Virus record (IMG/VR): IMGVR_UViG_2713896737_000023
Reading direction: 5' to 3' (one strand)
DNA: 4,816 nucleotides
DNA from: a virus
Lineage: Duplodnaviria > Heunggongvirae > Uroviricota > Caudoviricetes
Part shown: piece by piece, positions 1 through 4,676 of the stretch
Numbering within the stretch: the stretch's first letter is position 1
Layout of the letters: every line of letters starts with the position of its first letter
The notes under the pieces: generated by a model
The model's database searches: none
What the model was told of the DNA's origin: nothing
Seen by the model: the letters and a program-made list of their open reading frames with translations, nothing else
Program-made: the position numbers and the translations under genes

Positions 1-35
1 AAAATGTCAGCCAGCTGCTTTTTGTTGACTTCCAT
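1..35 (-). CDS. nu1: Terminase small subunit Nu1, N-terminal fragment (start codon at 35-33, gene continues beyond the window start)
   Basis: Reverse complement of 1-35 reads ATG GAA GTC AAC AAA AAG CAG CTG GCT GAC ATT = MEVNKKQLADI, which matches the N-terminus of lambda Nu1 as I recall it. It sits immediately downstream (in late-transcription direction) of the cos site, as in lambda. Confidence 0.8.
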   Translation of the reverse strand, partial: MEVNKKQLADI

Positions 36-260
36 TGTTCATTCCACGGACAAAAACAGAGAAAGGAAACGACAGAGGCCAAAAAGCCCGTTTTCAGCAC
101 CTGTCGTTTCCTTTCTTTTCAGGGGGTGTTTTAAATAAAAACATTAGGTTACGGCGAAGAAGAACGGAAACGCCTTAAACCGGAAAATTTTCATAAATAG
201 TGAAAAACCGCGAGGTCGCCGCCCCGTAACCTGTCGGATCGCCGGAAAGGACCCGCAAAA
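36..260. other. cos: Lambda-type cos region: cosB with Nu1-binding R-like repeats (GGAAACGACAG at 65-75, inverted copy CTGTCGTTTCC at 101-111, CGGAAACG at 165-172), cosN cohesive sequence 213-224, cosQ-like AGGACCC at 248-254
   Basis: Positions 213-224 are AGGTCGCCGCCC, the exact reverse complement of the lambda 12-nt cohesive end GGGCGGCGACCT. Flanking sequence on both sides closely matches the lambda left end (cosB, Nu1 start) and right end (CGTAACCTGTCGGATC) as recalled. R-element and cosQ positions are assigned by analogy and are approximate. Confidence 0.8.
213..224. other. cosN: cosN 12-nt cohesive-end sequence (terminase nicking site)
   Basis: Exact 12-mer AGGTCGCCGCCC (reverse complement of lambda GGGCGGCGACCT), seen directly in the sequence. 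Confidence 0.8.
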
Positions 261-1976: not shown

Positions 1977-2270
1977 ATGAAAAAAATGCTACTCGCTACT
2001 GCGCTGGCCCTGCTTATTACAGGATGTGCCCAACAGACGTTTACTGTTCAAAACAAACCGGCAGCAGTAACACCAAAGGAAACCATCACCCACCATTTCT
2101 TCGTCTCTGGAATTGGGCAGAAGAAAACTGTCGATGCAGCTAAAATTTGTGGCGGCGCAGAAAATGTTGTTAAAACAGAAACCCAGCAAACATTCGTAAA
2201 TGGATTGCTCGGTTTTATTACTTTAGGCATTTATACTCCGCTGGAAGCGCGTGTGTATTGCTCACAATAA
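1977..2270 (+). CDS. bor: Bor outer-membrane lipoprotein (serum-resistance lysogenic-conversion protein, Iss homolog)
   Basis: 97-aa product MKKMLLATALALLITGCAQQTF... with a signal peptide and lipobox (LITGC), essentially identical to lambda Bor as recalled. Convergent with Rz, as in lambda. Confidence 0.92.
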   Translation: MKKMLLATALALLITGCAQQTFTVQNKPAAVTPKETITHHFFVSGIGQKKTVDAAKICGGAENVVKTETQQTFVNGLLGFITLGIYTPLEARVYCSQ

Positions 2271-2276
2271 TTGCAT

Positions 2277-2302
2277 GAGCTGCCCATCGATATGGGCAGC
2301 TC
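2277..2302. terminator. Perfect 10-bp-arm inverted repeat (GAGCTGCCCA / TGGGCAGCTC, central ATCGAT) between the convergent bor and Rz stop codons; probable transcript-end hairpin
   Basis: Seen directly: 26-nt palindrome 7 nt after the bor stop and abutting the Rz stop. No strong U-tract on either side, so terminator strength is uncertain. Confidence 0.4.
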
Positions 2303-2763
2303 TATCTGCACTGCTCATTAATATACTTCTGGGTTCCTTCCAGTTGTTTTTGCATAGTGATCAGCCTCTCTCTGAGGGTGAAATAATCCCGTTCAGCGGT
2401 GTCTGCCAGTCGGGGGGAGGCTGCATTATCCACGCCGGAGGCGGTGGTGGCTTCACGCACTGACTGACAGACTGCTTTGATGTGCAACCGACGACGACCA
2501 GCGGCAACATCATCATGCAGAGCATCATTTTCAGCTTTCGCATCAGCTAACTCCTTCGTGTATTTTGCATCGAGCGCAGCAACATCACGCTGACGCATCT
2601 GCATGTCAGTAATTGCCACGTTCGCCAGCTTCAGTTCTCTGGCATTTTTGTCGCGCTGGGCTTTGTAGGTAATGGCGTTATCACGGTAATGATTAACAGC
2701 CCATGACAGGCAGACGATGATGCAGATGAGCAGAGCGGAGATAATCGCGGTTATTCTGCTCAT
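2302..2763 (-). CDS. Rz: Rz i-spanin (inner-membrane spanin subunit)
   Basis: 153-aa product [48 protein letters not shown]..., near-identical to lambda Rz as recalled. It has an N-terminal TMD and a coiled-coil periplasmic domain, and its start overlaps the R stop (ATGA). Confidence 0.92.
2361..2543 (-). CDS. Rz1: Rz1 o-spanin (outer-membrane lipoprotein), embedded in the +1 frame of Rz
   Basis: 60-aa product [24 protein letters not shown]... with a lipobox (VVGC) and a proline-rich mature region (PPPPPAW...PPPDW), near-identical to lambda Rz1 as recalled. Fully nested inside Rz. Confidence 0.85.
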
Positions 2764-3236
2764 ACCTCACTCTCTCTGACCGTTCCGCCAGCTTCTTTGA
2801 ATTTTGCAATCAGGCTGTCAGCCTTATGCTCGAACTGACCATAACCAGCGCCCGGCAGTGAAGCCCAGATATTACTGCAACGGTCGATTGCCTGACGGAT
2901 ATCACCGCGATCAATCATAGGTAAAGCACCACGCTCTTTAATCTGCTGCAATGCCACTGCGTCCTGGCTTTTGGGGGAGAAGTCTTTCAAACCAAGCTGT
3001 TTACGGTAAGCATCCCACCAGCGTGAAAGAAGCTGATAACGTCCGGCGGCTGTTGATTTGAGTTTGGGGTGTAGCGTGACAAGTTTGCGAGGGTGATCGG
3101 AGTAATCAGTAAACAGTTCGCCGCCAACAATAACATCATAACCGTGGTTACGTGTCGGTTGTCGCCCGTTATCCGTTCCTTCTGACCACGCCAACATATC
3201 GAGGAAGGCTTTACGCTGAGGATTAAGATTTTGCAT
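2760..3236 (-). CDS. R: Endolysin R (lambda-type lytic transglycosylase)
   Basis: 158-aa product ...[20 protein letters not shown]...[25 protein letters not shown]... matches lambda R over almost its whole length as recalled, including the catalytic Glu19 in the AWSEGTD context. The N-terminal ~6 residues differ from lambda. The start overlaps the holin 3' end by 14 nt. Confidence 0.92.
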
Positions 3237-3540
3237 TTTTCACCCCTGTCAGTCGTTCCCAGAAGTACGTCAGTGCAACCGAACCCATCGCACCACTAAT
3301 CCCCGCTGTCGCGAGAATCATGTAAATACTGAATCCACTTTCGATGCTGATCAGGCCACCAATAACACCGGTGAATCCTGATACCACTATTTGAGCCAGA
3401 GCATTTATCCAACTCCACGTTGCTTTACTCTGCTTCACATCTATCAGGTAGCGGACCAGACCGCCCCAACCTGCGATGATCAGCAAAACGAGCCAGAACG
3501 CTCCGGCAAGGCTCTCTTTTTCGTGCATATGAATAGCCAA
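3223..3540 (-). CDS. Class I holin (three predicted TMDs), not lambda S-like
   Basis: ORF immediately upstream of and overlapping R. Three hydrophobic segments (LAGAFWLVLLIIAGWGGLV, WINALAQIVVSGFTGVIGGLI, GFSIYMILATAGISGAMGSVAL) and a charged C-terminus ([11 protein letters not shown]). The codon at 3540-3538 is TTG (weak GGCGG about 7 nt upstream); the first ATG is at 3528-3526, giving 101 aa. The start is therefore ambiguous. Confidence 0.7.
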   Translation of the reverse strand: MAIHMHEKESLAGAFWLVLLIIAGWGGLVRYLIDVKQSKATWSWINALAQIVVSGFTGVIGGLISIESGFSIYMILATAGISGAMGSVALTYFWERLTGVKNAKS

Positions 3541-3642
3541 TGTTTCGCCGCCGACAAAAGGCCGGGACGTTAAATGTCAGAAATCAGGCTCACGGGGTAA
3601 TTTAACGACAAAGCACGGAGTTGATGCTCCCCACAAGCCTGG

Positions 3643-3668
3643 AATAAAAAAGCCAGCATGTAGCTGGC
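3643..3668 (-). terminator. Intrinsic terminator (distal, minus strand): stem GCCAGC/GCUGGC, loop UACAU, then UUUUUUAUU
   Basis: Seen directly on the minus strand: perfect 6-bp GC-rich stem (plus 3652-3657 / 3663-3668) followed by a U-tract (plus A-tract 3644-3651), between the Q-like gene and the holin. Confidence 0.6.
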
Positions 3669-3744
3669 AACAGAGGGCTAAGCAATATCAACTCAACAGC
3701 TGAAGACCCCCTGGCTGGGGTAGGTTGGAAGGCTACTCACCGTT

Positions 3745-3780
3745 CAGAAACAGAAAAGCCCAAGGCTTTAAACCTCGGGC
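3745..3780 (-). terminator. Intrinsic terminator (proximal, minus strand; candidate tR'): stem GCCCGAGG/CCUUGGGC, loop UUUAAAG, then UUUUCUGUUUCUG
   Basis: Seen directly on the minus strand: 8-bp stem with two G-U pairs (plus 3773-3780 / 3758-3765) followed by a U-rich tract, about 55-85 nt downstream of the candidate late promoter. Confidence 0.6.
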
Positions 3781-3837
3781 TTGAATTTGGATTACTGCCA
3801 GTGCGTACAACATTGGCAAAATATCAGATTTACATAA

Positions 3838-3866
3838 AATATATGATTTTTAATCCAGTTTTGCAA
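3838..3866 (-). promoter_or_regulatory. Candidate sigma70 late promoter (pR'-like): -35 TTGCAA (3866-3861), 17-bp spacer, -10 TATATT (3843-3838)
   Basis: Minus strand reads ...gaTATTGCAAaactggattaaaaatcaTATATTttatgtaaatctgatatttt.... The -35 overlaps the Q-like stop codon, as in lambdoid pR' arrangements. A -10-like GATATT/TATTTT in the initial transcribed region could act as a sigma-dependent pause element. Motif-based only. Confidence 0.4.
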
Positions 3867-4539
3867 TATCTTGCTGTGAAAATGTGGTCTTTTGTTTTGA
3901 ACGTGTTTTCGTTAAAAGCAATAAAGCTTGGCTATCAAGCTGTAGAAAAATGTGTTTCATTGCAACCCAGCGTTCAGTAAATGTCTCAGACCAGTTTTTT
4001 GATGTCACTCCCACCAGTGATGCCAGCTCCTGGTATTCATAGGTCTTACGCCCTGCCAGCTCGTTCTTCACATCCTGTGCCGCCAGCCAGATCAACTTCT
4101 TCAAACGTTCCAGTGTCTTACCTGCAATTTTCCTGGTACCCAACAGAGTCTTAAACTCGCTCCATGCCCACTGCGTTATGGTGACCTGATGTTCCCAGCG
4201 AACACTTTCGCTGTAACTCCACAGCAACCACGCTTTCTGATGTTCTTCGAGAGACAGAACCGCGCGGCGCCATGACGAGGTTGAGAACTCAACCTGGCTG
4301 ACCAGTGCAATGGATGAACCTTTTGCGTACGACTGCTTACCGGAAATCGGCGGATTATCCAGCGTAATCATCCTGCCAGTTACCTCATCCAGAATGCGCG
4401 GCTTCTTTCGTTTGTATGTACCAGTATCAAATTGTGCATGCTCCAGCCAGGCTTCAAGCTGTCCTTTCGTTGCTCCGCTCAAATCAGCGGTAGCCACAAT
4501 GAGTTGCTCGCGGACATACTGTAAATATTGGGTATTCAT
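3850..4539 (-). CDS. Putative late-gene antiterminator Q (229 aa, non-lambda type, no cysteines)
   Basis: 229-aa ORF with an AGGAG Shine-Dalgarno 7 nt upstream. It is directly upstream of a promoter, tandem terminators and the lysis cassette, which is the canonical Q position. It has no similarity to lambda Q as recalled and lacks any Cys, so it is not a zinc-finger Q-lambda type. Assignment is by synteny. Confidence 0.55.
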   Translation of the reverse strand: MNTQYLQYVREQLIVATADLSGATKGQLEAWLEHAQFDTGTYKRKKPRILDEVTGRMITLDNPPISGKQSYAKGSSIALVSQVEFSTSSWRRAVLSLEEHQKAWLLWSYSESVRWEHQVTITQWAWSEFKTLLGTRKIAGKTLERLKKLIWLAAQDVKNELAGRKTYEYQELASLVGVTSKNWSETFTERWVAMKHIFLQLDSQALLLLTKTRSKQKTTFSQQDIAKLD

Positions 4540-4676
4540 GCGGCAGCTCCTTTCAGTGTTTTGGCGTAATTCTTCAGTATCCGGTAATCGGTCAAAACAG
4601 AACCAGGAAAACGATATAAGCGCAGGCGCATCCAGCGGTGGCGAAGACGTTCTGCCATATAAGACTCAAACATCAT
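4536..4676 (-). CDS. Small basic ORF (about 46 aa; YlcG-like by size and position), translationally coupled to the Q-like gene
   Basis: My own translation of the minus strand: ATG ATG TTT GAG TCT TAT ATG GCA GAA CGT ... GGA GCT GCC GCA TGA = MMFESYMAERLRHRWMRLRLYRFPGSVLTDYRILKNYAKTLKGAAA. Its TGA overlaps the Q-like ATG (ATGA), and GGGGA lies 4-7 nt upstream of the two candidate ATGs. It is below the ORF-track size cutoff. DLP12 has a 46-aa ylcG directly upstream of its Q homolog. Confidence 0.4.
   Translation of the reverse strand: MMFESYMAERLRHRWMRLRLYRFPGSVLTDYRILKNYAKTLKGAAA

Follow-up and report, generated by a model that had tools for sequence, protein, structure and literature searches.

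Where does lambda-like DNA begin in a lysis cassette that couples a holin unlike that of phage lambda to lambda-type R, Rz and Rz1 genes, and from which codon is that holin made? The locus that raises these questions lies in a 4,816-nt stretch of DNA from a Caudoviricetes virus (IMG/VR record IMGVR_UViG_2713896737_000023), which was analysed at its full length and is referred to here as the window; all positions are counted from its first base. The window contains the minus-strand late-regulatory and lysis end of a lambdoid prophage. A first-pass annotation, made from the letters of the window, had placed a recombination junction at the holin/R overlap and had raised the possibility of a dual-start holin. 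We concluded that the cassette is quite probably an ordinary lambdoid late-operon lysis module put together from at least three sources, with an old joint inside the overlap and a holin read from a single start codon. The junction is of an already known kind, textbook lambdoid mosaicism, and is well localised.

The holin and its junction with R

The holin open reading frame occupies 3223-3540 on the minus strand. It starts at TTG 3540 or at an in-frame ATG at 3528 and ends with a stop codon at 3223-3225, which gives a product of 105 or 101 aa, respectively. We assigned it to the class-I-like holins of the PS3/ST64T/L gp13 type, which have three transmembrane domains (TMDs). The protein matched Pfam family PF16083 (Phage_holin_3_3) at 77.6 bits (cutoff 28.4) over profile positions 2-78 of 78, and phrog_785 with E = 1.2e-39. 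NCBIfam gave no match at E ≤ 0.001 for the holin, R, Rz or Q. The product corresponds to WP_000544528.1 (101 aa), and the start assigned by PGAP in identical loci is ATG 3528. Hydropathy analysis placed hydrophobic stretches at residues ∼11-29, 45-66 and 70-94 (105-aa numbering), and the C-terminal tail is basic. A single-sequence AlphaFold model of low confidence (pLDDT 66), which served only for counting helices, gave three of them (3-31, 35-64 and 68-93).

A tblastn search of phage records found 35 carriers of this holin. Gene 13 of phages PS3, ST64T, ST160 and L encodes proteins with 72-73% amino acid identity to the window holin over the full length; the values for a group of Klebsiella and E. 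coli temperate phages and for Serratia phage Eta were 84-86% and 64%, respectively. The gene lies directly upstream of, and overlaps, the endolysin gene in a Q-dependent late operon, and the same arrangement was found in ST64T, PS3, RAH1 and the loci from GTDB species. The holin is under strong purifying selection: 16 synonymous changes and one non-synonymous change separate it from the S88 allele (dN/dS 0.016), and dN/dS was 0.07-0.08 in comparison with the Klebsiella, Enterobacter and Salmonella relatives. In the classical lysis-defective phage L mutant 13-am43, codon 50 of a gp13-type holin gene has changed from CAG to TAG (PMC8022706). The Gln50 column is invariant in our alignment of six family members, and homology to phage L 13-am43 supports the view that the window holin would be needed for lysis.

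No similarity between the window holin and lambda S was detectable (BLASTP E = 9; the global alignment was noise). The window holin did not match PF05106 (Phage_holin_3_1), the family that both lambda S and the SOI121 holin do match. One could nevertheless suppose that the protein is a highly diverged S, changed by vertical descent and not by replacement of a module. PF16083 and PF05106 share the Pfam "holin superfamily III" naming scheme, and both proteins are three-TMD proteins of ∼105 aa whose genes overlap R. We rejected a divergent S on the BLASTP value, and no matches across the two families were obtained with hidden Markov models. In addition, similarity to lambda rises from none to 77-98% within a few bases, and window-type holins occur with four unrelated endolysin types. 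Vertical divergence from S is thus extremely improbable.

The module junction was mapped to the 14-nt holin/R overlap, ATGCAAAATCTTAA, plus one base (3222..3236, minus strand). In a megablast search against 50,697 phage records, lambda similarity began at position 3219. Local alignment pushed this limit to 3224 and continued ungapped for 1.4 kb, and on to position 248 through cos. Alignment with the lambda locus gave no similarity upstream of the holin end, the Q region included. We then bracketed the junction from both sides by blastn across complete E. coli genomes with a probe spanning the joint. Holin-only matches, which came from E. coli alleles with another lysozyme, stopped at probe position 171 (window 3230), and R-only matches, from alleles behind lambda-family holins, started at probe positions 164-174 (window 3237-3227). 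These limits place the predicted crossover within 3236-3222.

The R alleles found behind lambda-family holins begin ATGCAGG...AATCCTCAGCGT and differ from the window only in the overlap part, R nt 6-12. R starts of the mEp460, SOI121 and H7 type read ATGCAGG(A/T)ACTAAATCCTCAGCGT, encoding MQELNP or MQVLNS. From R nt 13 onward these alleles match the window almost perfectly. The sole differences before it are at R nt 6, 7, 9 and 12, inside the overlap that encodes the last residues of the holin (N-A-K-S-stop). Judged from these alleles, the MQxLNPQRK N-terminus is native to the mEp460/SOI121 R allele group, and the holin overlap dictates only R codons 2-4.

Holins of the same family that precede other endolysins end with ...GA(A/T)GAA(A/G)A-ATGCAAA, both in front of GH24 endolysins (RAH1, E. 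coli CUPF06) and in front of M15-like ones (ST64T, PS3). Because the ATGCAAA ending is shared, the endolysin Shine-Dalgarno (SD) sequence (GGGGTG in the window), the ATG and the second codon CAA belong to the holin module. The joint lies just inside the endolysin gene because the holin module carries the ribosome-binding site (RBS) and the start codon of the endolysin. Both parental types share ATGCA, which is a possible microhomology for the joining event. At least four types of endolysin are found behind holins of this family. The geometry of the overlap is mostly the same, and wherever the overlap measures 14 nt, ATGCAAA is kept. The partners are a GH24 endolysin (RAH1, Eta, CUPF06 and six GTDB loci), an M15-like peptidase (ST64T/PS3; Pfam score of 23.6 bits, below the cutoff of 25), a GH108 plus PG_binding_3 protein (716R3, KPP5665 and Klebsiella ATCC 13883, with a 4-nt overlap), and a lambda-R-type enzyme (the window and an Enterobacter locus). 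The first-pass annotation had described the holin as a three-TMD protein different from lambda S, had noted that the first R residues differ from those of lambda (MQNLNP vs. MVEINN), and had located the junction at the overlap. All of this was borne out, and the homology ends on both sides, together with the variable sites, narrowed the junction to 3236-3222; in the alignment with lambda the holin was not an S variant and the divergence was not evenly spread.

The R gene and the age of the joint

The R gene (2760..3236, minus strand) overlaps the holin gene by 14 nt and encodes a lambda-type endolysin of 158 aa, a lytic transglycosylase, which is internally mosaic. No Pfam model matches lambda-type R, and the protein was identified through PDB sequences of lambda lysozyme (1AM7, E = 2.2e-100 over residues 2-158; 3D3D, E = 4e-99). 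It keeps the AWSEGT motif with Glu19, which we take to be the catalytic residue of lambda lysozyme. The R N-terminus is polar, with neither a signal sequence nor a signal-arrest-release (SAR) sequence, and R is probably cytoplasmic and dependent on a holin that makes large holes. All endolysins examined that pair with the gp13-type holin family are without an N-terminal hydrophobic segment, which fits a holin of the large-hole kind better than a pinholin.

Only 9 of the 158 residues differ between this protein and lambda R, four of them at positions 2, 3, 4 and 6. The DNA was 88.5% identical overall, with the divergence concentrated in the 5' third of the gene and the differences nearly all at third codon positions. 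Compared with lambda, positions 3236-3219 had 8 mismatches in 18 nt, which is no real similarity. The next stretch, 3218-3114 (R nt 19-123), had 24 mismatches in 105 nt (77% identity), followed by 19 in 207 nt at 3113-2907 (91%) and ∼25 in 1,096 nt at 2906-1811 (98%). R as a whole had 25 mismatches to mEp460 and 55 to lambda. From this pattern we assigned the R 5' end to the mEp460/SOI121 allele group. The simplest reading is that a later homologous exchange within R joined a lambda-like right arm to an already existing unit of holin and R 5' end.

The spanin genes that follow are much closer to lambda. The i-spanin gene Rz (2302..2763, minus strand; PF03245, E = 5e-53) and the o-spanin gene Rz1 (2361-2543, minus strand; PF06085, E = 2.8e-20), which is embedded in Rz in the +1 frame, had 98.5 and 98.9% nucleotide identity to lambda, respectively. 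Rz1 carries a lipobox-like VVGC at its N-terminus. The bor lipoprotein gene lies beyond them on the plus strand (1977..2270; PF06291) and is 98.3% identical to that of lambda. It is followed by homologues of ybcV, ybcW and ylcI, and then by cos and the start of Nu1. The 98% lambda-like block thus consists of the 3' end of R, Rz, bor, the ybcV/ybcW/ylcI homologues, cos and Nu1. Positions 1-248 (minus strand) run from the lambda-like cos into the first Nu1 codons (ATGGAAGTCAACAAAAAGCAG, minus strand, near position 40). The expectation that R, Rz and Rz1 are all near-identical to lambda therefore held for Rz and Rz1 but failed for the DNA of R; likewise, a foreign holin is joined to a lambda-type R, but this R is not lambda's own, as its 5' 120 nt are only ∼77% identical to lambda. 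Escherichia phage PhiR47_2 (PV340567.1) was the only phage record with the exact cassette (98.7% over 1,651 nt). Its R gene (locus L002, 4665-5140) is split by a frameshift into two coding sequences, from a sequencing error or as a defective endolysin.

A joint at this place would also result from a recent single crossover at the S/R overlap, in which a phage with a foreign holin recombined with lambda or with a phage nearly identical to it, and lambda homology does start at 3219-3224 and run for ∼3 kb at up to 98%. The graded identity within R speaks against it: the first 105 nt past the junction are 77% and the next 207 nt 91% identical to lambda, and the mEp460 and SOI121 R alleles match the diverged stretch almost perfectly. 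The distribution of the joint does so as well. The joint-spanning probe was covered at ≥80% in 1,005 of 5,426 complete E. coli genomes, and the holin start region was found in 1,006 E. coli genomes. The flanks of the holin and R pair vary among them: there are different Q genes, cargo is present or absent in the gap that separates Q from the holin, and the spanin genes behind the pair are lambda Rz/Rz1 (the window), other "lysis protein" genes (S88, LR4) or DUF2570 (STS63). A scan of one genome per GTDB species gave 11 loci. The one from Enterobacter intestinihominis (L021) has the same holin family, a lambda-type R and a 14-nt overlap (ATGCAAACAATTAA), with ∼76% nucleotide identity to the window through both genes and no step at the joint. 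Since the Enterobacter pair shows no step at this level of identity and the pair is spread over E. coli, the fusion predates the divergence of these lineages and has been inherited as a unit. A recent lambda-specific event was rejected on the graded R identity, the Enterobacter pair and the ∼1,005 E. coli genomes with unrelated flanks, and we regard it as very unlikely.

In the assembly that we propose instead, the first source would be a PS3/ST64T gp13-type holin module extending from ∼3573/3559 to ∼3230, the 3' end of which would supply the RBS (GGGGTG) and the first bases (ATGCAAA) of the following endolysin gene. The second source would be a lambda-R-type transglycosylase gene of the mEp460/SOI121 allele group, fused to the holin module long ago inside the overlap, plausibly via the shared ATGCA. 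The third would be a right arm resembling that of lambda, with the 3' part of R, Rz/Rz1, bor, cos and Nu1. This arm would have been gained later by homologous recombination within R, which would produce the stepwise rise in lambda identity.

The start codons of the holin gene

We next compared the holin start region with that of its relatives. In the relatives, it consists of GGAGG, a spacer of 4-8 nt, and ATG GCT AAA CGT ATG, which encodes M-A-K-R-M. Variants are M-K-R-M (Eta and an Erwinia locus) and M-A-K-H-M (a Klebsiella group), and Met5 is invariant. Two Met codons split by basic residues fit the definition of a dual-start holin, as in lambda S107/S105, and the annotators of Eta flagged a "possible dual start motif." The window has GGCGG ... 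TTG GCT ATT CAT ATG. Compared with the relatives, the central A of the SD is lost, ATG is changed to TTG, Lys to Ile, and Arg to His. The extension TTG-Ala-Ile-His-ATG contains neither Lys nor Arg between the two starts, in agreement with the earlier remark that it adds no positive charge. Positive charge is what makes lambda S107 an antiholin. Because the extension adds none, occasional initiation at the TTG would still not yield an antiholin.

In E. coli the first codon varies: it is TTG in 798 records that do not differ over 71 nt, GTG in PEC414, and GCG in the S88 type. The band of 80-90% identity that corresponds to the S88 type, whose GCG is not a start codon, contains 141 records. Every E. 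coli allele examined has A-I-H-ATG; the upstream codon is not conserved and ATG 3528 is invariant. We consider ATG 3528 the likely sole functional start and TTG 3540 a probable vestige of a dual-start motif, and a lambda-like holin/antiholin pair is unlikely in the window. The ancestral antiholin isoform (M-A-K-R-M) would have been lost in the E. coli clade.

The opposite view, in which TTG 3540 serves as a working antiholin start and ATG 3528 as the holin start, as with lambda S107/S105, can draw on the GGAGG and M-A-K-R-M or M-K-R-M of the relatives with their invariant Met5 and on the Eta annotation. Initiation is possible at TTG and at GTG, which are the commonest alleles in E. coli, and the SD hairpin described below is retained. 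It has to contend with an A-I-H extension devoid of Lys and Arg, an SD reduced to GGCGG, an S88-type GCG that cannot initiate, and an ATG 3528 that is the same in every allele examined. We judge a working pair to be quite unlikely. What remains of the suggested dual start is the ambiguity of the two codons, as a vestige; a functional antiholin pair does not fit the lost basic residues and the variable upstream codon.

Folding with RNAalifold of 14 family members predicted a conserved 7-bp hairpin (3546..3569, minus strand), the 3' arm of which holds the degenerate SD GGCGG (3552-3548). One of its pairs covaries (A-U in 8 members, G-C in 3, all of the E. coli clade, and G-U in 2). The local hairpin was also present in single-sequence folds of the window and RAH1. 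Folds of the whole holin initiation region were no more stable than those of shuffled sequences (z = +0.6 and +1.0). Support for the hairpin is weak to moderate, and on thin evidence it recalls the sdi structure upstream of lambda S.

Several points weigh against an assembled module with a single-start holin. ATG 3528 has no purine-rich SD within 5-10 nt (upstream sequence gaaacattggctattcat), and the nearest SD-like element lies 19-20 nt away. The ATGCA microhomology is only five bases long and could be a coincidence. The proposed order of the recombination events was read from identity gradients, not from a phylogeny. Finally, IS629 flanks this O157-type prophage, deletions occur in sister strains, and lysis competence is presumed from the genes. 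A tentative proposal, which we hold with more doubt than confidence, is that the E. coli clade, which keeps the SD-sequestering hairpin and whose holin remains under strong purifying selection, needs no antiholin for the timing of lysis and starts translation at the SD-less ATG by a non-standard route, e.g., coupling to a short reading frame upstream or standby binding at the hairpin. If true, the holin carried by about one-fifth of the E. coli genomes sequenced is of a canonical type, is timed without a dual start and has a real start codon with no SD nearby.

The same features could also be signs of decay, in a defective prophage whose holin start region is degenerating and whose cassette no longer functions. 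Both the SD and the upstream start show degradation, the late region borders on IS629 (∼4690 onward), neighbouring genes are truncated in a sister O157 locus, and R is frameshifted in PhiR47_2. Against this, the holin reading frame is intact, its protein is identical across diverse prophages with the low dN/dS of 0.016 relative to the S88 allele, and R, Rz and Rz1 are intact in the window. Decay is an unlikely explanation. In practice, the holin is best annotated from ATG 3528 (101 aa), R is best regarded as an allele that is not lambda's own, and no antiholin should be assigned to the TTG codon. All that is mildly new here is that the dual-start motif has degenerated in the E. coli clade, and the loss of this motif is a small testable point for research on lysis timing. 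The joint itself is a finely mapped example of lambdoid lysis genes being swapped as modules at gene boundaries, with little import beyond annotation.

The late operon and related systems

Window positions 3100-3860 are 100% identical to a prophage adjoining icd in E. coli O157:H7 strains, and the window prophage is of the O157:H7 type. The far end of the window (∼4690-4816, plus strand) is the left end of an IS629/IS3-family element (TGAACCGCCCC...), with the ATG of orfA at 4743 (MTKNTRFSPEVRQRAIRMVLESQD). The IS629-like insertion lies 13 nt upstream of the start of ylcG (4536-4676), and the nin region is truncated. In the sister O157:H7 strain PV15-279, the site of the IS629 insertion is rearranged differently.

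The late-gene antiterminator gene Q (3850..4539, minus strand; 229 aa) matched Pfam PF06323 (Phage_antiter_Q) with E = 1.4e-94, and in identical O157:H7 loci it is annotated as antitermination protein Q. The Q-to-holin gap of 310 bp contains a pR'-like promoter and two intrinsic terminators. The promoter, TTGCAA-17-TATATT (sigma-70 type; 3838..3866, minus strand), was found by consensus scan only; since it lies directly downstream of Q, it would fit a lambdoid late-operon layout. A predicted short leader RNA (3755..3834, minus strand) ends in the first terminator (stem 3782-3756), and the second terminator is at 3668-3652 on the same strand. The terminator scan gave five sites vs. 0.9 expected. 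The leader resembles lambda 6S and StxS, which are short pR' leader RNAs. A 201-nt stretch gave a match to Rfam isrJ, a Salmonella small RNA (sRNA), which at 30.4 bits (E = 4e-4) is below the gathering score of 37. This isrJ-like match occupies the space from the pR'-like promoter to the first terminator. IsrJ and IsrK lie downstream of a Q-like gene in Gifsy-1 (PMC4825925), and a pR' sRNA of Stx phages was described previously (PMC7547250).

The Q-to-holin gap of the window (3541-3849) is without a cargo insert. Related E. coli prophages carry cargo genes in this gap (L012, 514-1317; L028, 1-517; L013, 46-861; L027, 1-562). They include genes for a DUF3800 and a TIR-domain protein on the opposite strand and, in L027, one for an ATP-binding protein on the holin strand. 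The gap is the site of stx in Stx phages, and the cargo may represent defence or moron genes.

From homology and layout, the following course of lysis is proposed. Q would modify RNA polymerase at pR' (3866-3838), and transcription would then pass the terminators at 3782-3756 and 3668-3652. The holin would be made from ATG 3528 and accumulate in the inner membrane as an N-out, C-in protein with three TMDs, its loop 1 and C-terminal tail being basic. At a set time it would trigger and form large holes, through which the signal-less cytoplasmic R would escape and cleave the murein. Disruption of the outer membrane by Rz/Rz1 would complete lysis.

That lambdoid phages exchange their holin, endolysin and spanin genes as modules has long been established, with phages L, ST64T and P22 as textbook cases (PMC8022706). 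The lysis cassettes of Stx phages have been catalogued (PMC8136144), and dual-start and non-dual-start holins in Shigella lambdoid phages have been discussed (PMC3851460). We found no description of this holin/R joint in the literature, of which the original paper on the PS3/PS34/PS119 lysis genes was not covered. RefSeq contains hundreds of genomes in which exactly this cassette is annotated.

Among known systems, gene 13 of phages PS3, ST64T, ST160 and L resembles the window holin gene in its length of 318 bp, in its 14-nt overlap with an endolysin start ATGCAAA, and in its position after Q and the late terminators. The Salmonella phages pair this holin with a 132-aa M15-like peptidase (Pfam match below cutoff), whereas the window has a lambda-type transglycosylase; they also keep GGAGG and M-A-K-R-M, where the window has GGCGG and TTG-A-I-H-M. 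The S-R-Rz-Rz1 cassette of lambda is like that of the window in gene order, holin/endolysin overlap and Q-dependent late expression, with 88.5-98.9% nucleotide identity across R, Rz, Rz1 and bor. It differs in its holin family and in the allele of the R 5' third, and the Q of the window is of the PF06323 type. The R genes closest to that of the window are those of mEp460, SfIV/SfV and E. coli prophages such as SOI121 and H7 (nt 13-330; 95% for mEp460), which share the MQxLNPQRK N-terminus. However, their holins belong to PF05106 and end 3 nt before R, and their spanins are different. The Enterobacter intestinihominis locus is like the window in holin family, lambda-type R and 14-nt overlap, with an Rz-like gene next to R, but it is only ∼76% identical in nucleotide sequence and has retained an intact GGAGG and M-A-K-R-M.

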